Shown here piece after piece: positions 11,731 through 64,000 of a stretch of DNA of 64,000 bases (the first letter of the stretch is position 1; the number at the start of each line of letters is the position of its first letter). The stretch is from IMG/VR virus record IMGVR_UViG_3300042673_001280; one strand, 5' to 3'. The notes beneath the pieces were generated by a model. That model ran no database searches. It saw only the letters and a list, made by a program, of their open reading frames with translations, and was not told where the DNA came from. This stretch comes from a virus. Its lineage: Duplodnaviria > Heunggongvirae > Uroviricota > Caudoviricetes. A program made the translations under genes and the position numbers.

Positions 11731-12359
11731 TATTTAATTCCTTTTAACTCGTCTATTTGAACTTGTTGTGCTTTAATACATTCAATTAACAATGGAATTA
11801 ATTTCTGATAATCAACAGCTAAAATGCCATTATCTCTTTCATGTACTGCTTCTGGTAGTACTTCAATTACTTCTTGAGCAATTACACCTACGTCATATTC
11901 TTTAAATAAAGATTGATTTTGAGTTGCATAATAATCTGCAGTCCATTTAAATGTATTGCCTGAAAGTGTTAGTAATTTCTCAAGTGGGTTAGCAATAGGA
12001 GTAATATTTTCTTTTAATCTTTTATCCGAACTATTGTAAGCAGTAATATTCTGCAACGCAGTAAGATCATGTTTACAATTTACTACACTACCAGCAGCTG
12101 TCGACCCAATGTTAACTATAGTTGCAGCTCCACCAATATTAAGAGTAGTTGCAGTAGTATTAATTAGATCAAAGCTTCCAACAACTGATGCAGATATAGA
12201 ATCTGTAAAAAGAGGAGCAGTTGCAAAAACTAACTTCCCAGTACCAGTAGTATCAACTGCACCGACATCAGCTAAATTAATGTAATCTAAATATGCTAAT
12301 CGACCTAAATCAGCATTAGTTGGTACTTGATGTGGTCTATTTCCTATAAAACTACTCAT
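11730..12359 (-). CDS. short fibre protein carrying a C-terminal intramolecular-chaperone (peptidase S74-like) domain
   Basis: C-terminal SDKRLKENI ... GVIAQEV ... VDYQKLIPLLIECIKAQQ matches the auto-processing chaperone of endosialidase/T5 pb1-type fibres. N-terminal Gly/Thr/Ala beta-rich stalk. Confidence 0.6.
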   Translation of the reverse strand: MSSFIGNRPHQVPTNADLGRLAYLDYINLADVGAVDTTGTGKLVFATAPLFTDSISASVVGSFDLINTTATTLNIGGAATIVNIGSTAAGSVVNCKHDLTALQNITAYNSSDKRLKENITPIANPLEKLLTLSGNTFKWTADYYATQNQSLFKEYDVGVIAQEVIEVLPEAVHERDNGILAVDYQKLIPLLIECIKAQQVQIDELKGIK

Positions 12360-12414
12360 TGTTGCAACCCTTTTAACGTTTTAGTTTTGTATGTTTGTTT
12401 CATTATTTATTCCC

Positions 12415-34084: not shown

Positions 34085-34512
34085 AACAAAAGTTTAAACA
34101 TGCTTTTATGAAAACGGCTTATACATTTGCGGAATTAAGTTCCGCAGTTAAGCTCAAAGTTGGTGCTGTTGTAGTTAAAGACGATAGAATTATTAGTCTT
34201 GGCTACAACGGTACACCTACCGGATGGGATAATACATGTGAACTTGAAATTATTAACTTTCAGGATGGATCTGTTCAACTTAAAACTAAATCAGAAGTTA
34301 TTCATGCAGAAATGAATGCACTTATGAAATTAGCAAGTTCATCTGAATCTGGTAAAGGTGCAGCTATTTTTATTACACATTCGCCTTGCATGGAATGTGC
34401 TAAAGGAATATACCAAACTGGTATAACTGAAGTATACTACACTGAAGCATATCGTAATGTAGATGGTATTGAATTTTTACAAAAATGTGGTATAACTGTC
34501 GAAAAATTATAA
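34081..34512 (+). CDS. dCMP deaminase (cytidine/deoxycytidylate deaminase family)
   Basis: HAEMNA and PCMECA zinc-binding motifs. Its start overlaps the carbamoyltransferase stop. Confidence 0.8.
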   Translation: MKQKFKHAFMKTAYTFAELSSAVKLKVGAVVVKDDRIISLGYNGTPTGWDNTCELEIINFQDGSVQLKTKSEVIHAEMNALMKLASSSESGKGAAIFITHSPCMECAKGIYQTGITEVYYTEAYRNVDGIEFLQKCGITVEKL

Positions 34513-43696: not shown

Positions 43697-45397
43697 ATGG
43701 CAGGAATAGCACACCCTGAAGATCTTATCATTACTGAAGGATCTAACGGTGCCCTTCAAGCAGTTAATGAATTAACTAATCTTTCAACATTAACTATTAA
43801 ATGGGACGGCTTTCCTGCAATAGTTTTTGGTCGAGATAAAAATGGAACATTAGTGCTTGTTGATAAGCACATGTTTAAACAAGTTGCTAACGGCAATCTT
43901 GAATTTACTTCAATTAGAGAATACGATTTAACCCGTAATATAAATCGTAACGACTTATGGGATAAAGAAGACATTCTCCGTCCTGCATTAGACAAAATAA
44001 TTCCAAATATAACTGACACTTACTACATGGGCGATTTGCTATGGGTTAATACCCCTGTTAGTGTTGGAGATTCATATGTTTTTAAACCAAATACTGTCAA
44101 ATATCATGTTGATCACAATAGTGAGTTAGGTAAATCAATTGCTAATAGTGTTGGGGGTATTGCAGTACATACGTTTATTCCAGGGTTAACTGCAGAAGAC
44201 GAACCAATTAATGGTTTTGATGTGTTTGCAGAGTGTAAAGACATTACGTTTATTGCAACTGAGATGAAACAGCCAAATATTGTTATAAACACTGCATTAT
44301 TAAACGCTGTACAAACTACAATTGCTACATATTCCAGCGATGTAGACGCTGTTATTGCTAAATTAACTGAGTTAAAATGTAAAAGTGTAATTACTGCAAT
44401 GGGACCGTTTATTACTAGTATGATTAACAGTGAAGATCTATCTACTAACATTGTTCCAAGATTTATTGATTTTTTTACGCTAAGACTTACAAAACCTGCT
44501 CACGCTAAACTGTTTTTACCAAATGGAAAACTACGTAACGACATTTACACTGGTATTAATGGTTTATGGAGTATATGGAGTGCAATTTCTAATCTCAAAT
44601 TAGACATTAAACGTCAAATTGATGAACAACAACTGCACAGTGCAGTGCAACCTGTAATAAATAGTATTATAAGTCACGAAGGCTATGTATGCGGCAGCGG
44701 TATTAACAAAATAAAAATTATAAATCGGTTAGAATTTAGCCGTGCTAACTTTTCCAAATACAATGTAACTGCAGAGGAAATTGCCGCAAAAAGTAACATG
44801 CCAATGGCAACTTTTTGTTTTGGTAGAATGAATCCTCCAACAGTTGGACATAAAAGAGTTATACAACAAACAGTAGCACTTGGAAAAGAACATGCATATA
44901 TTTTTGCAAGTAATAAACATGATCCTAAAAGTGACCCATTAGAGTACGACGTTAAAACTGAATTTATTAAAAAAATTCATCCTGATTATTCTAACTTTAT
45001 GGTAACCGAATATGTTAGAGATCCATGGCAAGCTGCATGTTGGTTATATGATAGAGGTTATAGACACATGACATTTGTTGCAGGCAGTGATAGACTAGGT
45101 AATAGTACTAGAAGTTTAGAAACTGCACTTAACAATTGGAATAGTGGTCCATCTCGCACTTCTGATTATGCTCGCGGACCAAATGGTAGAGAACATGTAG
45201 TATTAAAATTTGTTAGTAGTGGAGATCGCACAGATGAAACTAATAACGCTAGCAGTACATTAGCACGTGAATACGCTAAAATAGGTGACAAGATTAATTT
45301 CCAACTAATAACTGGTGTAAGTGAAGATATTACAGTATGTGGTAAAACCTTATATGAAGCTACTAGGGAGGGAATGAATGTACAACGGAATGAATAA
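43697..45397 (+). CDS. two-domain nucleotidyltransferase: N-terminal ligase-like KxDG domain fused to a C-terminal NMN/NaMN-adenylyltransferase-like (HxGH ... ISST) domain
   Basis: TIKWDG (motif I-like) and VFKPNTVKY in the first half. FGRMNPPTVGH plus ASSTLAR, characteristic of the cytidylyl/adenylyltransferase superfamily, in the second half. Confidence 0.45.
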   Translation: MAGIAHPEDLIITEGSNGALQAVNELTNLSTLTIKWDGFPAIVFGRDKNGTLVLVDKHMFKQVANGNLEFTSIREYDLTRNINRNDLWDKEDILRPALDKIIPNITDTYYMGDLLWVNTPVSVGDSYVFKPNTVKYHVDHNSELGKSIANSVGGIAVHTFIPGLTAEDEPINGFDVFAECKDITFIATEMKQPNIVINTALLNAVQTTIATYSSDVDAVIAKLTELKCKSVITAMGPFITSMINSEDLSTNIVPRFIDFFTLRLTKPAHAKLFLPNGKLRNDIYTGINGLWSIWSAISNLKLDIKRQIDEQQLHSAVQPVINSIISHEGYVCGSGINKIKIINRLEFSRANFSKYNVTAEEIAAKSNMPMATFCFGRMNPPTVGHKRVIQQTVALGKEHAYIFASNKHDPKSDPLEYDVKTEFIKKIHPDYSNFMVTEYVRDPWQAACWLYDRGYRHMTFVAGSDRLGNSTRSLETALNNWNSGPSRTSDYARGPNGREHVVLKFVSSGDRTDETNNASSTLAREYAKIGDKINFQLITGVSEDITVCGKTLYEATREGMNVQRNE

Positions 45398-51991: not shown

Positions 51992-52207
51992 ATGGTATTT
52001 GTGAGCCACAAGTCACATAAACTGAGATACAATATGGAAGAATTTAAAATCTGTACGGAATGTATTCGTCCGGAGATATGTTTATCAAGATGTGAATGTA
52101 GTATCATTGTTAATAGCGAAGAAGCTGTTGCAAGATTACGTGACGAAGAATCATTCATGTCATGGATTAACGAACACGCAACTAATCGCGATAGAGGTGA
52201 AGCATGA
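51992..52207 (+). CDS. small Cys-rich (CTEC ... C ... CEC) protein, coupled to the polymerase gene. The real start is probably the internal MEEFK.
   Basis: Its stop overlaps the polymerase ATG. Confidence 0.35.
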   Translation: MVFVSHKSHKLRYNMEEFKICTECIRPEICLSRCECSIIVNSEEAVARLRDEESFMSWINEHATNRDRGEA

Positions 52208-54867
52208 GTTATGTAGATGCTTACTTTGATCGTGATAACGATGTTATTAAAATTGTAGAAAGAAATTCAAAAGGTGAACGGGAATACAAAGATATTGCCG
52301 TTAAACACACATTATATTATACAGACCCGAAAGGGAAATATCAATCAATTTACGGAGACCCCGTATCAAAAGTAATTTGTAACAATACAAAAGAGTTCCG
52401 CAAAGAACTTTCAATACACGGTAATAAAAAGCTGTTTGAAGCAGATATTAATCCAATTTTTAAATGCTTATCAGATAACTATCTTAATCACGACGCGCCT
52501 AAATTAAATATTGCGTTTTATGATATTGAGGTTGATTTCGATCCAGAACGCGGGTATGCATCACCCGATGATGCGTTTATGCCTATTACTGCTATTGCAG
52601 TGTATTTACAATGGTTAGATACTCTTATTTGTTTAGCAATACCTCCAAAGACATTAACTATGGATCAAGCTAAAGAACAAATTAGAGATATTCCAAATAC
52701 TATTCTTTTTAACACAGAAGCAGAGATGTTAGATACATTTTTAACACTGCTTGAAGATGCTGATATTATTAGCGGCTGGAATAGTGAAGGATTTGATATA
52801 CCATACACTGTAAATCGTGTTACAAAAGTTCTATCAAAAGATGATACACGCAGATTTTGCTTGTTTAATCAATTACCAAAAAGACGTGAATATGAAAAGT
52901 ACGGCAAAGCTGCAGTAACATACGACTTTGTAGGACGTGTGCATTTAGATAGTTTACAATTATATCAAAAGTACACATATGAAGAAAGACATAGTTTTAG
53001 ACTTGATGCTATTGCTGAATATGAGTTAGGTGATCGTAAAACACAGTACGAAGGTACGCTTGATCAGTTATACAACAATGACTTTAGAACGTTTATTGAG
53101 TACAACCGTCAAGATACTATGCTATTACACAGACTTGATACAAAATTAAAGTTTATTGACCTAGCTAATACACTTGCACACGAGAACACTGTATTACTAC
53201 AAACTACTATGGGTGCGGTTGCTGTAACAGAACAAGCAATTATTAACGAATCACATCACAGAGGGTTTGTTGTACCTAACAGAAAAGGTAAAGCAGAACC
53301 AATTCAAGCTGCAGGCGCGTATGTTGCGTATCCTAAAGAAGGAATTCATGACTGGATTGGCTCGCTAGATATTAACTCTCTGTATCCAAGTGCCATTAGA
53401 GCATTAAATATGGGTCCGGAGACTATTGTAGGACAACTAAGACCAATCGTAACTGACGAATACATAGGCTTACAACTAGCTAAAGGTAAATCGTTTGCTT
53501 CTGCATGGGAAGGTTTGTTCGGTACACTTGAATATACGTCTGTTATGAATGAAGAAATAGGTACTGATATTACAATTGACTGGGAAAATGGCGATACTGA
53601 TATATTAAGTGCTGCTGAAGTATACAGATTGATATTTGAAAGTAATCAGCCATGGGTTATGTCAGCTAATGGAACTATCTTTTCATATGAAACAGAAGGT
53701 ATTATTCCTGGATTACTAAAGCGATGGTATGCAGAACGTAAGGATATGCAGAAAAAGCTAAAAGAAGCTATTAATGCAGGTAATAAGATTGAAGAAGAAT
53801 ACTGGGATAAACGTCAGCTGGTTAAGAAGATTAACCTAAATAGTTTATATGGTGCTATTCTTAATCCTGGATGTAGGTTCTTTGATAAACGTATTGGGCA
53901 ATCAACTACGTTAACTGGTAGACAAATTGCTAAACACATGGCAGCTAAAGTAAATGAGATTATAACCGGCGAATACAATCACACAGGTAAGTCTATTATT
54001 TACGGTGACACTGACTCTTGTTACTTTTCAGCGTATCCTACACTTAAACGTGAAATAGATAATGGTAGTTTACCATGGTCTAAGGAAACTGTTGTTCAAT
54101 TATATGATCAAATTAGTGATCAAGTTAATGGTACATTTCAACAGTTCATGCTTGATGCATTTCATTGCCCTAAATCGCGTGGTGAAGTAATTAAAGCTGG
54201 TCGTGAGATTGTTGGTAGTAAGAGCTTATTCATTACTAAAAAACGTTATGCAGTACTAGTATACGATAAGGAAGGTAAACGTAAGGATACACTTGGTAAA
54301 AACGGTGAAATTAAAGCTATGGGCTTAGACTTAAAGCGTAGTGATACACCTGAATTTATTCAAGACTTCTTATCACAAGTATTAGAAATGGTATTAGGTG
54401 GTGATACTGAACAGCATGTACTAGATTACATCAGTAAGTTTAGGATATCGTTTAAAGCTAGACCAGGTTGGGAAAAAGGTTCGCCTAAACGCGCTAATAG
54501 CATTACGTCTTATTTAGAAAAAGAAGCTAAACAAGGCAAAGTTAATATGCCCGGACATGTTAGAGCAAGTTTAAACTGGAATACACTAAAACGTATGTAT
54601 GATGACAAGTATTCAATGTCTATTACAGACGGTGCAAAGGTAATTGTATGTAAACTTAAACAAAACCCATTAGGGTTTACAAGTGTTGCGTACCCAGTAG
54701 ATGAATTACGCTTACCACAATGGTTTAAAAACCTACCATTTGATCATAATGGAATGGAAGATACTATTATTGATAACAAACTTGATAACTTGATTGGCAT
54801 TTTGAACTGGAAGTTAGCTGATACGTCAGATAGAAACACATTTAACAGTTTATTTGAATTTGAATAA
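52204..54867 (+). CDS. family-B DNA polymerase (T4 gp43-type replicase)
   Basis: Exo I FYDIEVD. Motif A DINSLYPSAI, motif B KINLNSLYGAIL, motif C YGDTDS. Confidence 0.9.
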   Translation: MSYVDAYFDRDNDVIKIVERNSKGEREYKDIAVKHTLYYTDPKGKYQSIYGDPVSKVICNNTKEFRKELSIHGNKKLFEADINPIFKCLSDNYLNHDAPKLNIAFYDIEVDFDPERGYASPDDAFMPITAIAVYLQWLDTLICLAIPPKTLTMDQAKEQIRDIPNTILFNTEAEMLDTFLTLLEDADIISGWNSEGFDIPYTVNRVTKVLSKDDTRRFCLFNQLPKRREYEKYGKAAVTYDFVGRVHLDSLQLYQKYTYEERHSFRLDAIAEYELGDRKTQYEGTLDQLYNNDFRTFIEYNRQDTMLLHRLDTKLKFIDLANTLAHENTVLLQTTMGAVAVTEQAIINESHHRGFVVPNRKGKAEPIQAAGAYVAYPKEGIHDWIGSLDINSLYPSAIRALNMGPETIVGQLRPIVTDEYIGLQLAKGKSFASAWEGLFGTLEYTSVMNEEIGTDITIDWENGDTDILSAAEVYRLIFESNQPWVMSANGTIFSYETEGIIPGLLKRWYAERKDMQKKLKEAINAGNKIEEEYWDKRQLVKKINLNSLYGAILNPGCRFFDKRIGQSTTLTGRQIAKHMAAKVNEIITGEYNHTGKSIIYGDTDSCYFSAYPTLKREIDNGSLPWSKETVVQLYDQISDQVNGTFQQFMLDAFHCPKSRGEVIKAGREIVGSKSLFITKKRYAVLVYDKEGKRKDTLGKNGEIKAMGLDLKRSDTPEFIQDFLSQVLEMVLGGDTEQHVLDYISKFRISFKARPGWEKGSPKRANSITSYLEKEAKQGKVNMPGHVRASLNWNTLKRMYDDKYSMSITDGAKVIVCKLKQNPLGFTSVAYPVDELRLPQWFKNLPFDHNGMEDTIIDNKLDNLIGILNWKLADTSDRNTFNSLFEFE

Positions 54868-54875
54868 ACTACTTA

Positions 54876-54904
54876 TTGACAAATTGATACAAATATAATA
54901 TAAT
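54876..54904 (+). promoter_or_regulatory. consensus sigma70 promoter (TTGACA-17-TATAAT) for the operon containing dpdA
   Basis: Exact hexamers. AGGAG SD and ATG at 54926 follow. Confidence 0.65.
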
Positions 54905-54925: not shown

Positions 54926-55663
54926 ATGAAAGACTTTTTACAAGATTTAGTAGCACATACACATACATTAACCGTTTTACCATTAGTTAAAGTAACTGCA
55001 ACTGCAGAAAATGCAGTGATTGAATCAGTAGCAGAAGATAGATCAGTAATGCTGTACGCAACTACACATACGCCAGTTAATGGTCTCGAACCATGCATCT
55101 TTGGTATGCCAAATTTAAACAAATTAGACTTACATCTTAAATGTCCAGAATATAAAACTGATGCAACTATTAAAGTTGTACAAGAAACTAGAGATGGTGT
55201 AAAAATCCCAACAGGGTTACACTTTACTAATGCAACTGGTGATTATGAAAATGATTATAGATTTATGAATGAAGAAATCGTTAGTGCAAAAGTAAAAAGA
55301 CCAAAACTTAAAGTAGAAATAGTGTATGATTTAGATTTTATTCCAACAGGTGTAAGTATTCAAAGATTAAAACATCAAGCTGCTGCACATACTGAAGAAA
55401 CTGTATTTCAACTAGTAACAGTTGATAACGACTTAGTATTTAGATTCGGTGATGCTAGTACACACGCAGGCTCATTTGTATTCCATCATAACATTAATAC
55501 TACATTAAAAAATACATGGTCATGGCCAATTACTCCAATTTTAAGTATTTTAAACTTAAATGGTAACTTAACTATGAAAGTTTCAGATCAAGGTTCGTTA
55601 CAAATTATAGTTGACAGTGGTATTGCAGTTTATAACTACACTATTCCAGCATATACAAAATAA
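54926..55663 (+). CDS. hypothetical protein (first gene of the dpdA operon)
   Basis: ORF only. Confidence 0.4.
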   Translation: MKDFLQDLVAHTHTLTVLPLVKVTATAENAVIESVAEDRSVMLYATTHTPVNGLEPCIFGMPNLNKLDLHLKCPEYKTDATIKVVQETRDGVKIPTGLHFTNATGDYENDYRFMNEEIVSAKVKRPKLKVEIVYDLDFIPTGVSIQRLKHQAAAHTEETVFQLVTVDNDLVFRFGDASTHAGSFVFHHNINTTLKNTWSWPITPILSILNLNGNLTMKVSDQGSLQIIVDSGIAVYNYTIPAYTK

Positions 55664-56079
55664 TGATAGACATTAGAAAAGCATTAAAATTATTAGATAT
55701 CATATATGTAAACGACAACGAGAGCATTAAATCGTCAGTTGATAAACTAACAATGTTAGCGCAATTAGATATGCCATCTTATGCTATGCCAGGACCGTTT
55801 GAACAGTTTTATGTTGATTACGAATACATGAAACAACGTGTGCAAGGACTTGAATCGAGATTAACCACACTTGAAGATTATAATCGAAACCCATATACAA
55901 ATTACACTGTTAATTCGCATATAGTTGGCCATGTTACTACAAGTCCGCAGTTTGTAAGTGCATTTAACAGAATTACACAATTAGAAACTGAATTACAAGT
56001 TACTAAAACGTTACTTAGTAAGTTATTAACCCCAGAACAGGAAGAAGATGAATCGGAACTTAACAGCAACACAGAATGA
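55663..56079 (+). CDS. hypothetical coiled-coil protein
   Basis: ORF only. Confidence 0.35.
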   Translation: MIDIRKALKLLDIIYVNDNESIKSSVDKLTMLAQLDMPSYAMPGPFEQFYVDYEYMKQRVQGLESRLTTLEDYNRNPYTNYTVNSHIVGHVTTSPQFVSAFNRITQLETELQVTKTLLSKLLTPEQEEDESELNSNTE

Positions 56080-57943
56080 TTATGCTGTATTCCTACCAGC
56101 AACGTCGGGTTTTTACTCAACGTTTGTCGGAAAACAACGTTACGGCAATTATGTTGAACCTTCACGTATTCCTGCATCATTTAAAGCAGGCGTAGAAGGT
56201 CTTAATTACTTAGAACCAGAAAAAGGTGAATTTTATTACAGATGGTGTTTGTATTCAGCAGGGCATGCAAACTTAGACTTGACTAAGCCTGACGAAAGCG
56301 AAGACATGTTTCGTAATAGAGATAGAAGCACTAGTTGGGTATTAGGTGACTCGGGCGGTTTCCAGATTGGTAAAGGCGTATGGGAAGGCGAATGGAGAGA
56401 TCCTAACAGTGCAATAGTACAAACAACCATGGCTGATTGCATTGCTAAAGGTATTGAAACTGTTCCTGTACTTGACTCAACAGGAAACCCAGTAGTTAAC
56501 AAAAAAGGTGTTCCTAAAACTACTAAAATTGATCACGTTAAACTATATCAAGCTCGGTTAGATGCTGCTCAAAAGAAAAGAGAGCAAGTATTAGCATGGA
56601 TGGATACGTTAATGGATTACGGAATGGTACTTGATATTCCGGCATGGGTCGAACGAAGTCCTGCAGGTAAACTTGCAACTGGTATTACAAGTTATGACGA
56701 AGCAGTTGATGCTACAATTTATAACAATGAATACTTTATGAAACACCGCAATGGTAACTGTAAATTCTTAAACGTATTACAAGGTGAAACCCATACACAA
56801 GCTGACGATTGGTATAGTAAGATGAAAGACTTTTGTGATCCTGCTATATATCCAGATACACACTTTAACGGGTGGTCAATGGGTGGTCAAAATATGTGTG
56901 ATGCCGAACTAGTACTTAAACGTGTAGTAACATTAAAATTTGACAACTTGTTACAAGAAGGCAAACATGATTGGATGCATTTCTTAGGAACCAGTAAATT
57001 AGAATGGGCATGCTTTTTAACTGATGTACAACGTGCAGTGCGTAAATATGTTAATCCAAAATTTACTATTAGTTATGATTGTGCTAGTCCGTTTTTAGCT
57101 ACTGCAAATGGACAGGTGTATATTACTACTGAATTAGACGATAGATCTAAATGGGTATATCGAATGGTGCCAAGCGTTGACGATAAAAAATATGCACAGG
57201 ATTCTAGACTATTTAAAGATGCAGTAATACAAGATGGTATTTTTAGTGTGTTTGATCCAAGTCCATTAATTGATCAAGTAGCAATTAAAGACGTGTGTAT
57301 ATACGGTCACGGTGTTCCTAATTGGACAGAAGTTAATAACGATAATGTTGATCATGCTAACCTATTTACAGATCCAAAATATTTAAATGATCCTAAATAC
57401 TGGATAACATTAGGCGATGCAAATAAAATTAACAAGATTGGTAAAACTAGTTGGGATAGTTTTAGCTATGCTATTTTAATGGGGCATAATGTGTGGAGTC
57501 ACGTTAATGCTGTACAAAAAGCAAATGAAGCTTACGACAACGGTATAATTCCTCGAATGTTAATAGGCGAAAAAACTCAACCGTATGTTGTTAGAGATAT
57601 TATTGACCGGATTATTGCGTGTGATGATAGAACCGTTGCTATTAAGATGATTGAAGATCTTGAAAAGATATGGATGGCTATTCCGGGCACTAGAGGTAAC
57701 ACTGGCAAAAACATAGTTAACAACGAAACTACTACTACTACTAATTATGTAGCCGAATCAATTATTACAGAAAAAGTTGAAAAAATTAGAAAAGTGTTAT
57801 TAACAGATCTTACATCACAAGTTAACAACTTATTTGATTTTGATGACAATATTACAGAAGAAGTAGAATCCGATGACTATGAGTTTTCTGAAGAAGACGA
57901 ACTTACCTTATCTAACCTAGAAGATAGCATTAAACATGAATAG
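56048..57943 (+). CDS. dpdA: tRNA-guanine-transglycosylase-family DNA 7-deazaguanine transglycosylase (DpdA-like) with a ~240-aa acidic C-terminal extension
   Basis: LGDSGGFQIG aligns with the TGT catalytic-Asp block (TDSGGFQ). YDCASPFLATANGQVY aligns with the second catalytic block (MFDCVLPTR.ARNG). No CxCxxC...H zinc site, as is usual for phage DpdA. Confidence 0.7.
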   Translation: MNRNLTATQNDYAVFLPATSGFYSTFVGKQRYGNYVEPSRIPASFKAGVEGLNYLEPEKGEFYYRWCLYSAGHANLDLTKPDESEDMFRNRDRSTSWVLGDSGGFQIGKGVWEGEWRDPNSAIVQTTMADCIAKGIETVPVLDSTGNPVVNKKGVPKTTKIDHVKLYQARLDAAQKKREQVLAWMDTLMDYGMVLDIPAWVERSPAGKLATGITSYDEAVDATIYNNEYFMKHRNGNCKFLNVLQGETHTQADDWYSKMKDFCDPAIYPDTHFNGWSMGGQNMCDAELVLKRVVTLKFDNLLQEGKHDWMHFLGTSKLEWACFLTDVQRAVRKYVNPKFTISYDCASPFLATANGQVYITTELDDRSKWVYRMVPSVDDKKYAQDSRLFKDAVIQDGIFSVFDPSPLIDQVAIKDVCIYGHGVPNWTEVNNDNVDHANLFTDPKYLNDPKYWITLGDANKINKIGKTSWDSFSYAILMGHNVWSHVNAVQKANEAYDNGIIPRMLIGEKTQPYVVRDIIDRIIACDDRTVAIKMIEDLEKIWMAIPGTRGNTGKNIVNNETTTTTNYVAESIITEKVEKIRKVLLTDLTSQVNNLFDFDDNITEEVESDDYEFSEEDELTLSNLEDSIKHE

Positions 57944-58460
57944 ACAGTATAATAACATAACTACTAACACTGCTAAGTTTTTTGTTGGCAACGAAGTAGA
58001 ACACACACCAGCATATAGTTTAAAAACATTGTTTGTTGTTGGCGCGCAAACTACAGAAGCAATCCATTATCGGTTAGATGCTGAAGAAGATATTACACAT
58101 ATCTTCTTTGGTGCAAACCATAGTTTTAATCCAAATACACCAGGTGCATGGCTCAATTGGAATAACATTATCGAGCACTTTTTAAAATTAGGCAAACAGT
58201 GTTCATTAGATATTCCATTTACAGTAGTAAACGATTTTAATAATAAAACTAATTTATGTTCATATGCAAATTTTATTCCTCAAATTAGAATTCCGGTTGC
58301 AAATATTAAAGATTGGAGTTATAATACAATGATAAAATTAGATGACATAGATTTTAACGCAACTAATCCCGGGGTGTGGACACATAACTTAAAAGCATTG
58401 CAAAATGACGATGTGTTTACTAGCTGGACTGACTATAACAACGACAATATAATTAAATGA
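57936..58460 (+). CDS. hypothetical protein (possible Rossmann-like fold)
   Basis: KTLFVVGAQ ... IFFGANHSF pattern. ATGAATAG overlap with the dpdA stop. Confidence 0.3.
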   Translation: MNRQYNNITTNTAKFFVGNEVEHTPAYSLKTLFVVGAQTTEAIHYRLDAEEDITHIFFGANHSFNPNTPGAWLNWNNIIEHFLKLGKQCSLDIPFTVVNDFNNKTNLCSYANFIPQIRIPVANIKDWSYNTMIKLDDIDFNATNPGVWTHNLKALQNDDVFTSWTDYNNDNIIK

Positions 58461-58816
58461 CAGATACACAAATGATATGGGTTTCTTTTAAGAAAGAAGG
58501 AATTCACCATTACCCTGATGCATTAACTAACCCTAACTTAATAGATGTATCTTTTTTAGGACATCCACATAGACATATATTTCATTTTAAAGTATGGATA
58601 GAAGTTACGCATTCTGACAGAGACATTGAGTTTATACAATTTAAACGATGGTTAGAATCATTGTATATTAGTTCAACATTATCATTAGATAACAAAAGTT
58701 GTGAAATGATAAGTAATGATTTATCATTAACAATTAGAAATGAATACCCTAATAGGGCAATTTGGATTGAAGTTTCTGAAGACGGCGAAAACGGATCATT
58801 TATTAAGTATTTGTAA
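58457..58816 (+). CDS. hypothetical His-rich small protein (LGHPHRHIFHF)
   Basis: ORF only. Weak resemblance to T-fold metal-site motifs. Confidence 0.3.
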   Translation: MTDTQMIWVSFKKEGIHHYPDALTNPNLIDVSFLGHPHRHIFHFKVWIEVTHSDRDIEFIQFKRWLESLYISSTLSLDNKSCEMISNDLSLTIRNEYPNRAIWIEVSEDGENGSFIKYL

Positions 58817-58817
58817 T

Positions 58818-59030
58818 ATGAAACATTTTGTCTCAAAAGCTATGCTTGAACAACAGATTAATCGGTTACGCCAAGAGATATCAGACTTTGAAATCCAACA
58901 TATGAAATCAGTTAACCCTAAACTTAAAAACGTATTACACATTAAACAATTAAGAAATCAACTGTACGATTTGAAGGAACAACTGCTAATTCGTACTAAA
59001 CAAACTATATTAAAAAACGGAAGAAAATAA
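58818..59030 (+). CDS. small coiled-coil protein
   Basis: The ATG directly after the upstream stop is the likely start (ORF track gives 58740, overlapping the previous gene). Confidence 0.35.
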   Translation: MKHFVSKAMLEQQINRLRQEISDFEIQHMKSVNPKLKNVLHIKQLRNQLYDLKEQLLIRTKQTILKNGRK

Positions 59031-59031
59031 A

Positions 59032-59286
59032 ATGGCTAAAAATTACAAAACATTCTCATACTTAGAATCACGTCCAGATGTTGTTAAAATCTTTGAAGAT
59101 TTAGAAGCATTCCATGACTTTTGCAGAATTGAGTTACGTAAATTTGATCCAGCAGATTTATATCGTAAAGATAGTAAATCATACGGTGCTTACATTGCTA
59201 GTAAACGCCCTCGTAAACCATATCAAGGTAATAAACCTTGGCCAAACGGTGTTAGACCCAAAAACACATATCAAAAAAAATCTTAA
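59032..59286 (+). CDS. small basic protein
   Basis: ORF only. Confidence 0.35.
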   Translation: MAKNYKTFSYLESRPDVVKIFEDLEAFHDFCRIELRKFDPADLYRKDSKSYGAYIASKRPRKPYQGNKPWPNGVRPKNTYQKKS

Positions 59287-59300
59287 TCTTATTTTTAACT

Positions 59301-59320
59301 GAAAGCCCTACGGGGCTTTC
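59301..59320 (+). other. GC-rich 8-bp stem-loop (gaaagccc-tacg-gggctttc) without a U-tract
   Basis: Perfect complementarity. Intergenic, between the dpdA operon and the glycosyltransferase gene. Confidence 0.5.
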
Positions 59321-59335
59321 ACCGCAGGACATATT

Positions 59336-60433
59336 ATGAAATTAAAACCTACTATTTGGATATTTGCTATTGAACCATTAGATACTCGATATACTAAACA
59401 ATGGATCGAGCATATTCCATCACAACTTAAAGAACACGTTGGTGATTACAACATTGTACAAATTACTGGTGATCAACAAGACTCAGAAGTAACACCGGGT
59501 GCATTTTTAAACTTTATAGATACTAACATTTGGAAAGGATCACAGCTTGTTGGTTTTTTAAAAAACTATAATAAATCTTCAACTAATGATCATTTCTTAT
59601 TTACAGATGCATGGAATCCGGCAATTATAAACTTAAAGTACATTAAAGACTTAATGAGATTAAATTGGACATTTCACGGGTTGTGGCACGCAGGTAGTTA
59701 TGATAAACACGACTTTCTAGGTGCTATTGATCACGGGTGGGTTAAACTAGCTGAAAAGAGTTATTATGCAGCATTTGATCATAATTACTTTGCAACTGAA
59801 TTCCACGTGCGTATGTTTATGGAACAATTATTAAACAACGGAATGACTAGTGAAAATCCGTGGTTTGAAGAAGATTGGGATGAACGTTACGACGATGGTA
59901 AAATTGTACGCACTGGTTGGCCAATGGAATACTTAGCAGACGAACTAGCGCCGTATGCTAATAAAGAGAAACGTGATTTAATTGTATTTCCACATAGAGT
60001 TGCTAGCGAAAAACAAGTTGATATTTTTAAAGCATTAGCTCATCAATTACCACAATACGACTTTGTTGTATGTCAAGAACAAAAGCTAAGTAAAGATGAA
60101 TATCACAACCTGTTAAGCGAAGCAAAGATCGTGTTTAGTGCTAACTTACAAGAAACATTAGGCATTAGTTGTTATGAAGGTGCGTTACTTGGTGCTATTC
60201 CAATGGTTCCTGATAGATTAAGTTATAAAGAAATGTATATGTATCATTTTAAATATCCATCAGAATGGACTGCTAGTTATGCAGACTACGAATCACACAG
60301 TTATGATTTGTGTAACAAAATTATCCATTACATAGAAAACTATAATGATATTGTACCATATGTTAAACAACAAGCCGATTACTTAGCACTGGAATTTTTT
60401 AATGCAGGAGATTTATATGACAAGTTTAAATGA
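59336..60433 (+). CDS. GT-B-fold glycosyltransferase-like protein
   Basis: C-terminal FPHRVASEKQVDIF ... IVFSANLQETLGISCYEGALLGAIPMVPD resembles the E-x7-E retaining-GT motif region. Confidence 0.4.
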   Translation: MKLKPTIWIFAIEPLDTRYTKQWIEHIPSQLKEHVGDYNIVQITGDQQDSEVTPGAFLNFIDTNIWKGSQLVGFLKNYNKSSTNDHFLFTDAWNPAIINLKYIKDLMRLNWTFHGLWHAGSYDKHDFLGAIDHGWVKLAEKSYYAAFDHNYFATEFHVRMFMEQLLNNGMTSENPWFEEDWDERYDDGKIVRTGWPMEYLADELAPYANKEKRDLIVFPHRVASEKQVDIFKALAHQLPQYDFVVCQEQKLSKDEYHNLLSEAKIVFSANLQETLGISCYEGALLGAIPMVPDRLSYKEMYMYHFKYPSEWTASYADYESHSYDLCNKIIHYIENYNDIVPYVKQQADYLALEFFNAGDLYDKFK

Positions 60434-60836
60434 TACAATAACAACATCATCTGGGTGTGATACAATTACATTTAATATGGATGGAGATCCAACACGTTAC
60501 AGTATACCAGCTTTTGATACTATTACACTTAGTGACTATGTATCTAGTTCAACTGCTAGCGGAATATACAATGGAACAATGCATGGTACTGCTCCGTACA
60601 CAATTAGTAATTCTTCTACTATTGGAATTAATGGGGGGTCATCTTATTACACCGGCACTGGTGGTTATTGGAATCAATCATATAACGGTAAACCATTTGA
60701 AGATAACTTTCCAGAATGGAATGCATTTAGAGAGTTGTGTGATGAATATCCAGGATTAGAAAGAGCATATCAAAACTTAAAAACTTTTTATACTATGTGC
60801 CATGCAGATAGTTTATTACCAAAGGACGATAAATGA
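60402..60836 (+). CDS. Ser/Thr/Gly-rich hypothetical protein
   Basis: ORF overlapping the end of the GT gene. Start uncertain. Confidence 0.3.
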   Translation: MQEIYMTSLNDTITTSSGCDTITFNMDGDPTRYSIPAFDTITLSDYVSSSTASGIYNGTMHGTAPYTISNSSTIGINGGSSYYTGTGGYWNQSYNGKPFEDNFPEWNAFRELCDEYPGLERAYQNLKTFYTMCHADSLLPKDDK

Positions 60837-61363
60837 AAGTAGTAAAATACAGTTGGAAACAATTAGAAGGCGCAGCATTGGAGATTGCACGTCAAATACA
60901 AAAAGATAACTGGAAACCAGATTACATTGTTGGAATTACACGCGGTGGACTTATTCCTGCAAACTTACTTAGTCAGTATCTTGGAGTTAAGATGTTAACA
61001 TTACACGTTAGTTTACGTGATCATCCGGATGATAACGAACACAATGCATGGATGGCATGTGATGCATTTGGAATTACTGATGACGAACTAGCAAGTACCG
61101 GACAAGCTAAAAACATCTTAATTGTTGATGACATAAATGACTCAGGTGCAACCCTTGATTGGATTAAAGAAGATTGGAAATCATTGTGTTTACCAAATGA
61201 CATAAGATGGAAACACGATGTATGGCATAAGAATGTAAGATTTGCTACAATATTTGATAATAGTGCTAGTAATGCACATGTTGATTATTGTGCAGAAGAA
61301 TTTGATAACCGAGACGATCCAATTTGGATTGACTTTCCATGGGAAAACTACTGGAAGAAATAA
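60833..61363 (+). CDS. type-I phosphoribosyltransferase (purine/HGPRT-like)
   Basis: PRPP-binding motif ILIVDDINDSGATL. ~175-aa size. Confidence 0.7.
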   Translation: MKVVKYSWKQLEGAALEIARQIQKDNWKPDYIVGITRGGLIPANLLSQYLGVKMLTLHVSLRDHPDDNEHNAWMACDAFGITDDELASTGQAKNILIVDDINDSGATLDWIKEDWKSLCLPNDIRWKHDVWHKNVRFATIFDNSASNAHVDYCAEEFDNRDDPIWIDFPWENYWKK

Positions 61364-61695
61364 TGGAACTACATTCAATAGCTAAGAAACACGGTATACG
61401 AAGCATAGACGTTGAACAATTTTATGCTGCAGGTGATAACTATTCGTTAGATTGGTCAAGATCAAACCTACCAAGCGAAAGAGCAAACGTTACACGGTCA
61501 TTAACTGTTAAAATACACGAGAACGATTTTATAAAGTTAATTGACAAAGCTGAAAAGTGTGAAGACTGGAATAAAAAATATTATGAAGATATGTATGTTA
61601 GAGATTCTAATCCAACTGTAAAAGCAGCATACGAAAAATATCAAATGTTTTTAGAAATAGCAAGATCGGAAGTACACAATGACAGACTTAACTAA
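61339..61695 (+). CDS. hypothetical protein
   Basis: ORF only. Confidence 0.35.
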   Translation: MGKLLEEIMELHSIAKKHGIRSIDVEQFYAAGDNYSLDWSRSNLPSERANVTRSLTVKIHENDFIKLIDKAEKCEDWNKKYYEDMYVRDSNPTVKAAYEKYQMFLEIARSEVHNDRLN

Positions 61696-61839
61696 AGAAG
61701 AACTACAAGAAAAGATTTTACAAGTAAAACGTGATATTTCTAAACATAGCGATTCAAGTAATCCACGTATATTATTAGGCCTTCAAGAATATGTAAATTA
61801 TTTAGAAGACGAATTAAAAACATTGACAAATAAACAGTA
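61678..61839 (+). CDS. candidate 53-aa coiled-coil micro-protein (MTDLTKEELQEKILQVKRDISKH ...)
   Basis: GGAAG SD 6 nt before the ATG. Fills an otherwise empty 180-bp gap. Its 3' end carries the -35 of the folE promoter. Confidence 0.3.
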
Positions 61840-61851
61840 GTGTTGTATAAT
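61823..61851 (+). promoter_or_regulatory. consensus sigma70 promoter (TTGACA-17-TATAAT) for folE
   Basis: Exact hexamers 27 nt upstream of the folE ATG. Confidence 0.65.
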
Positions 61852-61877
61852 ACACACTTACAACTAGGAAATTATAT

Positions 61878-62549
61878 ATGAGCTTTAATAAAACAAAAAC
61901 CGATTCAGAATTAGGTTTAGAAATACACAATCATTTAGTAAGTTTAGGAGTAGAAACTCCGGTAACTGAAAAAATATTAACATCATCAGAAAAGATTAAT
62001 ATCATTCAGGACAAGTTTTATGATATTATGGTAACTTTAGGTTTAGACTTAACAGATGACAGTTTAGCAGACACTCCTAAACGTGTTGCAAAAATGTTTG
62101 TCAACGAAATATTTTGGGGTCTTGATTATGATGCGTTTCCCAAATGTACTACTATTCAAAATAAGATGGGATACAATGAAATGTTAATTGAACGCAACAT
62201 TAACGTACAAAGTAACTGCGAACATCACTTTGTAGTAATTGACGGGTTTGCAACAGTAGGTTACATTCCAAAAGATGTTGTACTTGGATTAAGCAAAATT
62301 AATCGCGTAGTTGAATACTTTGCAAAACGTCCACAAGTACAAGAAAGATTAACAGAACAAGTATTCCATGCACTGGAATACATTTTAGATACTGATAATA
62401 TTGCAGTAGTAATTGATGCAAAACACTATTGTGTTGCTGCAAGAGGTGTAGAAGATACAGGTAGCACTACTATTACTAGTAAGTTAGGTGGTGCATTTAA
62501 AAACGATCCAACTACTCGTGCAGAATTTATGAGTATTGTAAACAAATAA
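61878..62549 (+). CDS. folE: GTP cyclohydrolase I
   Basis: CEHH, GLSKINRVVEYFAKRPQVQERLTEQ blocks conserved with bacterial FolE. Confidence 0.9.
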   Translation: MSFNKTKTDSELGLEIHNHLVSLGVETPVTEKILTSSEKINIIQDKFYDIMVTLGLDLTDDSLADTPKRVAKMFVNEIFWGLDYDAFPKCTTIQNKMGYNEMLIERNINVQSNCEHHFVVIDGFATVGYIPKDVVLGLSKINRVVEYFAKRPQVQERLTEQVFHALEYILDTDNIAVVIDAKHYCVAARGVEDTGSTTITSKLGGAFKNDPTTRAEFMSIVNK

Positions 62550-62557
62550 GGAGAGTT

Positions 62558-63010
62558 ATGAAAGACTTAAAACCACAAATTCCAGCAGTAGGCATTATGA
62601 AAACAAGTGACTGGGGTAACAGTAAAATGTATAAAATTCAATGCACATGCGGCAACGACGATGACAATATTGAGTTTATGATTGAGGCAGATGATCTTAA
62701 TATGATTACTGTAACTACATTTACAACACAAAAAACTGCGTACTGGGATAGACCATTTGATGTTTCGAACACATACAAAATTAAAAATTCGTTTTTAAGC
62801 AGTATTGCATACGAAACATTGAGCTTTCTTAACGGGTTTCAGCATCGTATTAAAATGACATGGAATTTGTGGTTTAATGGTTATCTTAAATATCAGCAAT
62901 CAACTATAATGACTGAACAACAGACATTAAACTATGCAGAAACATTGAAGGCTGCAGTTAATGATTGCAAAGATTTTCGTAAACAAGATAGGGCAACTAA
63001 TCTTAAATGA
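62558..63010 (+). CDS. hypothetical protein with a CxC pair (CTCGNDDD)
   Basis: ORF only. Confidence 0.35.
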   Translation: MKDLKPQIPAVGIMKTSDWGNSKMYKIQCTCGNDDDNIEFMIEADDLNMITVTTFTTQKTAYWDRPFDVSNTYKIKNSFLSSIAYETLSFLNGFQHRIKMTWNLWFNGYLKYQQSTIMTEQQTLNYAETLKAAVNDCKDFRKQDRATNLK

Positions 63011-63056: not shown

Positions 63057-63707
63057 ATGAACTACTTAATGATTAAAAAATGTATGAATACCGGACTTAA
63101 ATATCTGTGTAAAACAAGCGGTAACAAAAATCCTTATTTATATACCGGATCCGGAGTTAGATGGTTGCACCATATTAAGAAACACAAATCACATATTATA
63201 ACTTGTATAATAGGTGAATATAATACTAAAGAAGAATTGCAAGAAGCAGGTCTGCATTATTCTAAATTATATAATGTAGTAAAAGATTACACCTGGGCAA
63301 ATTTAACAGAAGAAAAAGGCGACGGTGGATTAATAGGTAACGGACAATTAGGTAAAACTTGGAAAATTAAAGATACATCTAATATGAATAAACCAAAAAC
63401 TAAAACAGATGCTTGGTATGAAGGTAAAAAAAAGACTGCTGGTAAAAACAACTATCAATTTAAAGGTCAAATAAAGACCCCATGGGGTCTTTTTGATACA
63501 GGTTTAGATGCTATTACAGAAGGCAAACGATTAAGAGAATTAGGAAATACAGAAGTAATTACAGATGGCAATACTTTAAGAAAGTATTTACATTCGTTAG
63601 ATACTGTGTTAAACTTACAAGGCAGGCGAACTCCAAAAACTTGGAGAGGTAAAACGCCAAGAGAAATAGGTTTTGAAATAATAAAGGATACAGATGTCAA
63701 AAATTAA
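63057..63707 (+). CDS. GIY-YIG-type homing-endonuclease-like protein (Seg-like)
   Basis: N-terminal YLMIKKCMNTGLKYLCKTSGN ... RWLHHIKKH fits the GIY-10/11-YIG ... R ... H catalytic module. Basic Lys-rich C-terminal DNA-binding-like half. Inserted between folE and queE. Confidence 0.4.
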   Translation: MNYLMIKKCMNTGLKYLCKTSGNKNPYLYTGSGVRWLHHIKKHKSHIITCIIGEYNTKEELQEAGLHYSKLYNVVKDYTWANLTEEKGDGGLIGNGQLGKTWKIKDTSNMNKPKTKTDAWYEGKKKTAGKNNYQFKGQIKTPWGLFDTGLDAITEGKRLRELGNTEVITDGNTLRKYLHSLDTVLNLQGRRTPKTWRGKTPREIGFEIIKDTDVKN

Positions 63708-64000
63708 GATATCAGAAATATTTTACTCTCTACAAGGAGAGGGTAGATTTATGGGAGTGCCAAGTGTGTTCCTTAGAACGTTTGGGTGCAATTTTTCTTG
63801 TAGAGGGTTTGGAATGCCAGCAGGTGAACTAAGTGTACAAGCAGATGCGATTGCTAATAATGGTATACAATATCATTCATATGATGAACTACCATTAGTA
63901 ACTACTGGCTGTGACAGTTATGCAAGTTGGCATCCAAAGTTTAAACATCTAAGTCCAGCGATGTCAATAGACGAAGTTGCAGCTAAAATGATTGAGCTGT
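63694..64000 (+). CDS. queE: 7-carboxy-7-deazaguanine synthase (radical-SAM QueE), 5' part. The gene runs off the window.
   Basis: EIFYSLQGEGRFMGVPSVFLRTFGCNFSC aligns with the QueE N-terminus (F.TLQGEG ... GVP..F.R..GC...C). Not in the ORF track because no stop occurs inside the window. Confidence 0.7.
   Translation, partial: MSKIKISEIFYSLQGEGRFMGVPSVFLRTFGCNFSCRGFGMPAGELSVQADAIANNGIQYHSYDELPLVTTGCDSYASWHPKFKHLSPAMSIDEVAAKMIEL

Follow-up and report, generated by a model that had tools for sequence, protein, structure and literature searches.

What do a glycosyltransferase (GT) and a phosphoribosyltransferase (PRTase) contribute to a phage gene cluster for 7-deazaguanine DNA modification, a well-studied counter-defence? 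This question was raised by a stretch of 64,000 nucleotides from IMG/VR virus record IMGVR_UViG_3300042673_001280 (hereafter, the window), which is part of a jumbo phage genome. As described in an initial annotation of the sequence, one open reading frame (ORF) encodes the GT (positions 59336 to 60433, plus strand, 365 amino acids [aa]) and another the PRTase (60833 to 61363, plus strand, 176 aa), and both are located between a gene related to those for tRNA-guanine transglycosylases (TGTs; 56048 to 57943) and the gene for FolE (61878 to 62549). The annotation was also right that neither activity is part of the canonical pathways: the published schemes (PMC10516641) contain no sugar transfer and no step from base to nucleotide. 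As judged from gene neighborhoods and conserved motifs, both genes belong to the deazaguanine system from whose published schemes they are absent. Taken as a whole, the observations are best explained, with a probability that we put at about 50%, if both are accessory members of a QueC-less, DpdL-type 7-deazaguanine DNA-modification block, in which the GT would place a sugar on deazaguanine and the PRTase would recycle guanine.

The identity of the GT was established from structure rather than from profiles. In Pfam, the protein reached only a sub-threshold match to Glycos_transf_1 (E value of 0.022; 14.7 bits versus a cutoff of 26.4), with a partial alignment of residues 251 to 288, and its orthologue in the T4-like cyanophage BUCT-ZZ01 scored just above the same cutoff (26.5 versus 26.4). 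A profile search of the PDB with the GT returned nothing. The AlphaFold2 (AF2) model, built from 39 homologues, had a pLDDT of 87 and a pTM of 0.85 and displayed a GT-B fold with two Rossmann-like domains. Foldseek matched this model to glycogen synthase, BshA, GlgM, PglA, MshA, and BH4 glucosyltransferase, all of the GT4/GT5 type (E values of 4e-8 to 1e-4); the matches to PDB entries 3fro, 6n1x, 6tvp, 8dvw, 3c4q, and 5ze7 had E values of 4e-8 to 4e-6 and TM scores of 0.5 to 0.63. In addition, H220-R221-x4-K226 and E273-x7-E281 were invariant in the 39 sequences. From their position and the partial Pfam alignment, we infer that HR-x4-K, as the basic R/K pair binding the diphosphate of the NDP-sugar, and E-x7-E are the donor-site motifs of GT4 enzymes, which would argue for an active nucleoside diphosphate (NDP)-sugar transferase. 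The annotation of this gene as a GT-B enzyme was thus borne out by fold and invariant motifs despite the sub-threshold Pfam score. A likeness to the T4 α- and β-glucosyltransferases, which had been put forward for a structure search, was not found: these enzymes were absent from the 50 best of 70 significant PDB matches and from the BFVD matches, and GT4/GT5 enzymes matched instead. The family is large, with at least 8,000 database homologues.

Two other roles were considered for the GT. The eukaryotic enzyme QTMAN/GTDC1 mannosylates queuosine, but Pfam gave the GT no DUF3524-type match that would indicate a relation. A role in making pterin glycosides, suggested by the match to BH4 glucosyltransferase and by the presence of FolE and a PTPS-like protein, was rejected because QueE and the TGT-like gene are always present and because 5ze7 is merely one among many equivalent GT4 matches.

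The genomic neighborhood of the GT was strikingly constant. GT orthologues adjoin a TGT-like gene in seven phage lineages as well as in bacterial islands, and all of these partners carry the motif DSGG(F/L/Y)Q. Within the clade of the window, 80 IMG/VR loci keep the order clamp, DpdA-like, p174, DpdL, p84, and GT, followed by a variable set of p144, PRTase, FolE, and QueD and then by QueE. Amino acid identity of the GT was 44 to 47% to Phosso and eleven PA5oct-like phages, 36% to ACP17, 24 to 27% to Xanthomonas phages BUDD and X1, and 21% to Burkholderia phage BCSR5, and gene order was reshuffled among these phages: DpdA-like, GT, DpdL, further genes, PRTase, and QueE in PAC2 (FolE was not in the neighborhood shown); DpdL and GT, then, with genes in between, FolE and QueE in Phosso; QueD, FolE, gp122 (a p174 homologue), gp123, GT, DpdL, and QueE in ACP17; FolE and, further on, GT, TGT, DpdL, and QueE in BUDD; and GT, a 446-aa DSGGFQ protein, and, at intervals, QueE and FolE in BCSR5. 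In BUCT-ZZ01, the order is QueE, PRTase, a hypothetical gene, QueD, FolE, a GT of 447 aa, a TGT-like gene of 416 aa, DpdL, and a GT of 388 aa; the latter is the orthologue of the window GT (hhalign, 97.8%; E value of 8e-13). On this genomic linkage, the GT is a genuine, undescribed partner of deazaguanine insertion.

Several of these loci held further genes of interest. The 447-aa GT of Synechococcus phage BUCT-ZZ01 (locus L004, 7918 to 9261) is a second, unrelated enzyme of the Glyco_trans_1_4 type in the same deazaguanine cluster and may point to a disaccharide or to a choice between two sugars. In BUDD, a 164-aa PP-loop protein of the PAPS-reductase type is encoded between FolE and GT in a QueC-less cluster (L006, 6383 to 6877); it could adenylate the CDG (7-carboxy-7-deazaguanine) carboxylate, a tailoring step different from that of the window. 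Xanthomonas phage PhiXhv-15 (L090, 4642 to 7876) carries a partial GT homologue (25% identity, 63% coverage) beside GlmS and an LmbE/BshB-type deacetylase and has no Que genes there, an arrangement resembling a BshA/BshB-like pair in a jumbo phage.

Among the isolates, Pseudomonas jumbo phage PA5oct (Wroclawvirus) is under study for therapy and is a target of END nucleases. Directly after its DNA polymerase and clamp genes, PA5oct has DpdA-like (34% identity), GT (44%), DpdL (53%), PRTase, and QueE, in this order. No nucleotide similarity to the window was found, and its PRTase shares 26% identity with that of the window and is without two insertions typical of the window clade. PA5oct DNA resists cleavage at G-containing restriction sites and carries a modified G (PMC12191111). 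A deazaguanine system was noted in this phage, but neither GT nor PRTase was (Iyer et al. 2021, PMC7824862), and a 2026 review still treats deazaguanine in jumbo phages as predicted only (PMC13282480). Phosphoribosyltransferases and glycosyltransferases are never mentioned in PMC10516641, and our literature searches turned up neither a glycosylated deazaguanine nor a PRTase assigned to the phage pathway.

The same pairing was found outside phages. A scan of GTDB genomes revealed the GT in chromosomes of Pelagibacterium, Devosia, Ochrobactrum, Azospirillum, Aurantimonas, and Roseobacter. In all 10 alphaproteobacterial chromosomal loci it adjoins a DpdA-like gene with DSGG(F/Y)Q, and in 9 of them a gene for a Vut_1/YhhQ-family membrane protein ends at the GT start. 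YhhQ is the preQ0 transporter of Escherichia coli, and its family transports preQ0 and preQ1. Neighboring genes encode GmrSD and an integrase in one locus and CBASS (SMODS and patatin) together with an OLD-family nuclease in another, and these neighbors indicate that the bacterial loci are defence islands. The module of DpdA-like, YhhQ/Vut_1, and GT genes (loci L101 to L108, L110, and L112) looks like an uncharacterized bacterial system that modifies DNA with a salvaged deazaguanine. The Roseobacter locus L110 also contains, close to the module, a relative of the 447-aa GT of BUCT-ZZ01. Since the adjacency of GT and TGT-like gene is found in bacterial chromosomes, chance synteny within a replication module cannot explain the pairing, and its occurrence across phages and bacteria marks the pair as the invariant core. 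Around this core, as the gene content indicates, the deazaguanine is made in the phages and imported or borrowed in the bacteria. The bacterial modules probably use a C7 substituent different from that of the phages; differing substituents would point to a sugar acceptor that the bases have in common, namely the 2-amino group of their core, or to the CDG carboxylate.

The partner of the GT in the window, a 631-aa protein (56048 to 57943, plus strand), had been labeled DpdA in the initial annotation. D101-SGGFQ, L244-QGE, H311-FLGTS, and D344-CASP were invariant in 32 homologues, and DSGGFQ, QGE, HFLGTS, and D-C-A-S-P are hallmark motifs of TGTs. In these enzymes, DSGGFQ holds the general acid/base Asp, and the nucleophilic Asp stands in a D-(C/S/T)-x-x-P context. 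The label therefore stands as far as these motifs are concerned, but the protein is very divergent: no match was obtained in Pfam (including the TGT family PF01702), PHROG, or PDB sequence searches, and the CxCxxC zinc motif was not found. Its AF2 model was of low confidence (pLDDT 60). The two top Foldseek matches, which were the only ones with a probability near 1, were the bacterial TGT 1wkd (2.4e-3) and the archaeosine TGT (ArcTGT) 1iq8 (9.8e-3), with TM scores of 0.2 to 0.3 for this poor model. The protein is 34% identical to a 540-aa protein of PA5oct and PAC2. On motifs and model, we take it to be a very divergent member of the TGT superfamily, presumably a DNA guanine/7-deazaguanine transglycosylase.

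The stop of the DpdA-like gene overlaps the start of the gene for p174 (57936 to 58460, plus strand), a conserved protein present between DpdA-like and DpdL in 66 of the 80 related loci. By alignment, p174 is homologous to ACP17 gp122, whose gene is directly upstream of the ACP17 TGT-like gene; no family was found in Pfam or PDB searches, and hhalign comparisons of p174 with the "glycosylase" of Phosso, the "epimerase" fragment of PAC2, CGPG_00066 of phiST, and other small neighbors detected no relation. The family (170 to 185 aa) has invariant residues E20, E22, H55, D92, K134, D136, D137, and N144-G-V-W, which suggests an enzyme or an obligate partner of DpdA. The next gene (58457 to 58816, plus strand, 119 aa) had probably been taken for QueD. 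It encodes L34-GHP-H38-R39-H40-I-F42, that is, LxxxHRHxF in place of the CxxxHGH of QueD, a signature that defines DpdL, a QueD paralogue proposed to be a CDG decarboxylase (Cui, Hutinet et al., PMC10516641). The protein also matched phrog_17812 (2.7e-34) and was 52 to 59% identical to proteins of Phosso, ACP17, PAC2, and BUDD, including 56% to ACP17 gp125, which is presumably the ACP17 dpdL tested in PMC10516641 and named there without a gene number.

No QueC was found in the window or in 160 related loci, which assigns the cluster to the QueC-less CDG/7-deazaguanine (DG) type. A search of the window, itself only part of a jumbo genome, for MazG, ribonucleotide reductase (RNR), nucleotide kinases, QueC, and QueD gave no hits. 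In phiST, a phage of this type, dG is wholly replaced by deoxy-7-deazaguanosine (dDG). The authors of PMC10516641 could not reconstitute dDG from DpdL and DpdA alone and suspected that enzymes were missing. The QueC-less DpdL systems described there (phiST and ACP17) likewise combine FolE, QueE, DpdL with LxxxHRHxF, and a TGT-superfamily gene, and likewise lie beside DNA polymerase and clamp genes. In contrast to the 259-aa DpdA3 of phiST, the TGT-like protein of the window has 631 aa, and the two align weakly (hhalign E value of 0.006); the TGT-like partners of GTs are generally of 420 to 630 aa. The window cluster further adds the GT4-like GT, p174, and p84, whereas of the published systems ACP17 has the GT and phiST the PRTase.

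Unlike the GT, the PRTase was identified from sequence directly. It matched PF00156 with 61 bits versus a cutoff of 26.3 (E value of 1.1e-16), in agreement with the annotated motif ILIVDDINDSGATL, which is present at residue 95; PDB matches were to Pyrococcus horikoshii 1vdm (1.3e-9), Sulfolobus GpT-2, and E. coli xanthine-guanine phosphoribosyltransferase (XGPRT; 8e-7). The pyrophosphate (PPi) loop R37-G38-G39 and the phosphoribosyl pyrophosphate (PRPP) motif D99-D100-x-x-D103-x-G105-x-T107 were invariant. In 122 PRTase sequences, the Asp that corresponds to D92 of E. coli XGPRT was invariant as well, and so was the stacking Trp; in 6-oxopurine PRTases, this Asp contacts N7 of the purine. With E. 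coli XGPRT (Gpt), the phage enzyme shares a similar size (∼150 to 176 aa), the RGG loop, DDxxDxGxT (including the Asp that contacts N7), and the pair Trp134-Ile135 with its stacking Trp. It differs in overall sequence (29% identity), in having Asn at the position of K115, and in two insertions of the phage clade, located in the flexible loop and behind the PRPP motif.

To survey the neighborhoods of the PRTase, we used the proteins of BUCT-ZZ01, phiST, MaInes, and PAC2 as seeds and obtained 80 diverse viral loci. Within 8 kb, QueE was encoded in 67 of them, FolE in 51, DpdL in 38, and QueD in 33; none had QueC. Several architectures could be distinguished, e.g., QueD-QueE-PRT-FolE-DpdL-DpdA3, and the PRTase lies within the Que operon in BUCT-ZZ01, PAC2, immuto_2-6A, and MaInes. 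In Flavobacterium phage immuto_2-6A, it is located between QueE and FolE in a cluster with DpdA3, DpdN, a thymidylate-kinase-like gene, and QueF. Brevundimonas phage MaInes has the order RNR-RNR-deoxynucleoside monophosphate (dNMP) kinase-FolE-XPRT; its QueC, QueD, and QueE genes lie across the polymerase gene from these. The PRTase is also carried by phiST and its relatives phi19:2 and phi13:1; in phiST it adjoins RNR, and a MazG-like pyrophosphatase is encoded inside the Que cluster. Replacement of G is complete in both phiST and immuto_2-6A (PMC10516641, Table 1). Conversely, no PRTase was found within ±10 kb in the full-length loci L018, L036, L063 to L065, L072, and L083, which keep DpdA-like, DpdL, GT, and QueE, nor in the neighborhoods shown for ACP17, BUDD, and BCSR5. 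That both genes act in a deazaguanine system, as the initial annotation had supposed, is therefore supported by the pairing of the GT with the TGT-like gene and by the presence of the PRTase in FolE/QueD/QueE clusters. Its further proposal that the PRTase converts a free deazaguanine such as CDG or preQ0 into a nucleotide is less secure: the enzyme keeps the N7-contacting Asp, the gene is missing near the cluster in several lineages, and a sink and recycler for guanine would explain the data just as well.

According to the reading that we prefer, FolE and QueE, as recognized by sequence and with QueD encoded elsewhere, make CDG from GTP. DpdL is the published candidate for decarboxylation of CDG, and the divergent TGT-superfamily protein is a candidate for swapping guanine in DNA for the deazaguanine. 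The GT, presumably a GT4-like, retaining-type, NDP-sugar-dependent enzyme that forms a conserved pair with the TGT-like gene, would then add a sugar to the deazaguanine, most likely once the base is in DNA, and thus yield a glycosylated deazaguanine that has not been described; glycosylation after insertion is favored by analogy with every known glycosylation of a DNA base. The sugar could be accepted by the carboxylate of CDG or, as in huimycin, by the 2-amino group that the bases share. A hydroxylated or aminated base, which had been suggested as the acceptor, is not obvious here, since a QueC-less, DpdL-type cluster is expected to yield CDG or DG. The T4 α- and β-glucosyltransferases (GT72 and GT63) are phage enzymes that share the GT-B architecture, and, as proposed here, the sugar goes onto a modified base after replication. 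The window GT differs from them in matching GT4/GT5 enzymes, in the E-x7-E typical of GT4, and in its proposed acceptor, a purine analogue and not hydroxymethylcytosine (hmC).

The PRTase would couple a purine base to PRPP. Base exchange frees one guanine per modified site, and this expelled guanine is the slightly favored substrate: by converting it irreversibly to GMP, the enzyme would drive the exchange to completion and replenish GTP, the substrate of FolE. We slightly favor such a guanine sink or recycler over a TubE-like deazapurine PRTase because neither the N7-contacting Asp nor the stacking Trp varies, because the deazaguanine end product differs among clusters with homologous PRTases, and because the PRTase is dispensable in several lineages and the TGT-like gene never is. 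A more ambitious proposal, in which the pair of TGT-like protein and GT installs a glycosylated 7-deazaguanine and the PRTase provides the missing step for complete replacement of G, by supplying a deaza-nucleotide to the polymerase or by removing expelled guanine, is tentative and in our estimate falls somewhat short of even odds.

A number of observations weigh against the preferred reading. The GT family is acidic (pI 5.2 to 6.0), which is not suggestive of a DNA-binding enzyme. If DpdL yields plain 7-deazaguanine, there would be no C7 substituent and no obvious sugar acceptor in the major groove. No GT orthologue was detectable in phiST, which has DpdL and the PRTase and whose dDG is not glycosylated (PMC10516641). 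Motifs and a model of pLDDT 60 are the basis of the TGT assignment. As for the PRTase, the Lys that binds the 6-oxo group (K115 in E. coli) is Asn in 121 of 122 clade members, so that base specificity may be noncanonical, although this Lys is kept in the phiST and MaInes enzymes. Furthermore, its association with QueC-less clusters that contain a decarboxylase candidate mirrors exactly the logic of the tubercidin pathway, in which TubE is followed by TubF (PMC6112128), and the failed reconstitution of dDG from DpdL and DpdA (PMC10516641) is compatible with a missing PRTase step.

The last points lead to a route at the nucleotide level, similar to that of tubercidin, in which the PRTase would join CDG or another free 7-deazaguanine to PRPP, DpdL would decarboxylate the base or the nucleotide, and kinases and RNR would provide 7-deaza-dGTP to the phage polymerase, leaving to the TGT-like protein a secondary or corrective exchange. 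The PRTase TubE, encoded in a QueC-less cluster, is specific for CDG and does not accept DG, and the carboxyl group is removed after ribosylation (PMC6112128). The phage PRTase hardly occurs outside QueC-less clusters with DpdL, and every checkable isolate with complete G replacement in the 2023 table (phiST, phi19:2, phi13:1, and immuto_2-6A) has one. The MazG-like pyrophosphatase and the RNR of phiST, the thymidylate-kinase-like gene of immuto_2-6A, the order of RNR, dNMP kinase, FolE, and XPRT in MaInes, the lack of dDG with DpdL and DpdA alone, and the Asn at the K115 position point the same way. Against this stand the TGT-like gene, present in every cluster when the PRTase is dispensable in several, and the invariant catalytic Asp, which contacts an N7 that 7-deazapurines do not have. 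PRTases accompany differing end bases (DG in phiST, fdPreQ1 in immuto_2-6A, and the QueC-containing cluster of MaInes), which is simpler if the substrate is always guanine, and MazG, RNR, and kinase genes were not found in the 64-kb window. On balance, we regard the nucleotide route as rather unlikely, if a close rival of the guanine sink. The precedents for the chemistry are in any case analogies from secondary metabolism: TubE and ToyH (tubercidin and toyocamycin) are likened to the phage PRTase by context, as PF00156 enzymes in a CDG-producing cluster, which for tubercidin lacks QueC and has a decarboxylase. Unlike the phage system, these are antibiotic pathways, TubF is a UbiD-type decarboxylase and not a T-fold protein, and in PDB matches the phage PRTase is closest to archaeal and bacterial XGPRT-type enzymes.

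The corresponding precedent for the GT is HuiG of the huimycin pathway (bioRxiv 10.64898/2026.04.15.718813), so that both chemistries proposed in the initial annotation have a parallel, if only by analogy. Likened to the window GT by its description, HuiG is of the GT4 type, is encoded beside FolE, QueD, and QueE homologues, and glycosylates a base derived from 7-deazaguanine; it differs in belonging to actinomycete secondary metabolism, in its free-base acceptor, and in a pathway with QueC. Since HuiG puts GlcNAc on a free 7-deazapurine base, the GT could also act before incorporation, on the 2-amino group of the free base or nucleotide, with the large TGT-like protein inserting the product. 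The acidity of the GT family would suit such a role, as would the many invariant aromatic and polar residues of the N-terminal acceptor domain, typical of a small-molecule pocket, the position of the GT right after the base transporter in bacterial modules, and the size of the TGT-like partners in comparison with phiST DpdA3. However, TGT enzymes read the 2-amino group and the N1/O6 edge according to established structural knowledge, so an N2-glycoside should not fit the pocket, and all known glycosylations of DNA bases (hmC in T4 and hydroxymethyluracil in other phages) take place on the polymer. We consider glycosylation before insertion improbable, more so than the nucleotide route. Least credible by far is that the GT has nothing to do with DNA, lies only fortuitously in the replication module, and acts on proteins of the virion or host or on an envelope glycan, with the PRTase serving generic auxiliary purine salvage. 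The closest solved structures are indeed GT4 enzymes acting on small molecules and glycans, the partial homologue of PhiXhv-15 stands beside GlmS and the deacetylase without Que genes, and XGPRT-type enzymes are ordinary salvage enzymes. But the adjacency to TGT-like genes survives extensive shuffling of gene order in the seven phage lineages and persists in bacterial chromosomes that have no replication module, the PRTase neighbors QueE, QueD, or FolE in 67 of 80 diverse loci, and the block follows an early-type sigma-70 consensus promoter and not structural genes.

If the preferred reading holds, the linkage of the GT predicts a new DNA base, which would be a candidate for the modified G of PA5oct. 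Carriers of this hypermodified purine would then be expected to include environmental jumbo phages in their thousands, PA5oct, and the defence islands of Alphaproteobacteria, and a glycosylated deazapurine would matter for sequencing, for restriction mapping, and for the specificity of type IV and END nucleases. The correlation of the PRTase with isolates in which G is fully replaced bears on how 100% replacement arises and on why DpdL and DpdA gave no dDG in E. coli; if a PRTase step is involved, the view that DpdA3 alone gives complete, purely postreplicative replacement would need revision.

Downstream of 54.9 kb, every gene of the window is on the plus strand, and the genes are tightly spaced or overlap; the co-oriented block comprises clamp, DpdA-like, p174, DpdL, p84, GT, p144, PRTase, FolE, and QueE. 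It follows a T4-type PolB gene (52204 to 54867), whose product is 49% identical to PolB of Sinorhizobium phage Phosso and 42 to 45% identical to those of Atu_ph07, Vibrio phage 2.275.O, and large coliphages. A nucleotide search of the phage collection with positions 56000 to 63000 gave no match, so that GenBank does not include this phage; in the closest IMG/VR contig, IMGVR_UViG_3300042887_003127, the GT is 100% identical. A promoter-like site at 54876 to 54904 (plus strand; 12/12 match to the sigma-70 consensus TTGACA-17-TATAAT) precedes the block and is the putative start of a unit with DpdA-like, DpdL, GT, and PRTase. The first gene of the conserved block encodes a PCNA-like sliding clamp (54926 to 55663, plus strand; 29 to 30% identity to the PAC2 "proliferating cell nuclear antigen" and the Phosso sliding clamp), which precedes DpdA-like in most related loci, and an ORF without assignment (55663 to 56079, plus strand) separates the two.

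Between DpdL and the GT, the small basic protein p84 (59032 to 59286, plus strand; pI 9.8), encoded directly upstream of the GT and present in 76 of 80 loci, had no family match in Pfam or PHROG. The 50-nucleotide gap between p84 and the GT contains a GC-rich hairpin (GCCCTACGGGGCTTTCACCGCAGGAC; 59305 to 59330) of 9 pairs, 6 of them G-C, in a region of 33% GC; it scored as terminator-like on the minus strand only. The acidic, S/T/G/Y-rich protein p144 (60402 to 60836, plus strand), encoded between GT and PRTase and conserved in 20 of 80 loci, likewise had no family match in Pfam or PHROG. After the PRTase, two small ORFs (61339 to 61840, plus strand) are followed by a second promoter-like site just upstream of FolE (61823 to 61851, plus strand), again a 12/12 match to TTGACA-17-TATAAT. 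Both sites, which are consensus matches only, suggest early transcription by the host polymerase in two units that split the deazaguanine genes. FolE, a GTP cyclohydrolase I encoded on the plus strand, matched PF01227 (2.3e-60) and phrog_2197 (3e-74). Further along the plus strand are p150 (62558 to 63010), p216 (63057 to 63707, 216 aa), and the CDG synthase QueE (63694 to 64000), which is cut by the window end and was recognized in its N-terminal part from the translation and from tblastx matches to the PAC2 and Phosso QueE genes. By eye, p216, encoded between p150 and QueE, resembles seg/GIY-YIG-type homing endonucleases, with no Pfam match. Its patchy distribution (just 3 of the 80 related loci) suggests that it was inserted into the Que operon as a mobile element.

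Elsewhere in the window, a 566-aa protein (43697 to 45397) combines DUF6267 with a weak C-terminal match to cytidylyltransferase-like (HIGH nucleotidyltransferase) proteins; it could be an NMN adenylyltransferase or an enzyme that forms sugar nucleotides, possibly tied to the donor of the GT. At 32444 to 34512, a NodU/CmcH-type carbamoyltransferase (546 aa; Carbam_trans_C, E value of 5e-54) is translationally coupled to a dCMP deaminase, and the two may represent a second, pyrimidine-directed route of nucleotide or DNA modification in the same phage. Finally, the minus strand from 5686 to 23922 contains two giant ORFs of 2,014 and 3,835 aa, and the segment from 6001 to 8000 has a GC content of 46%, compared with ∼35% in the rest of the window.

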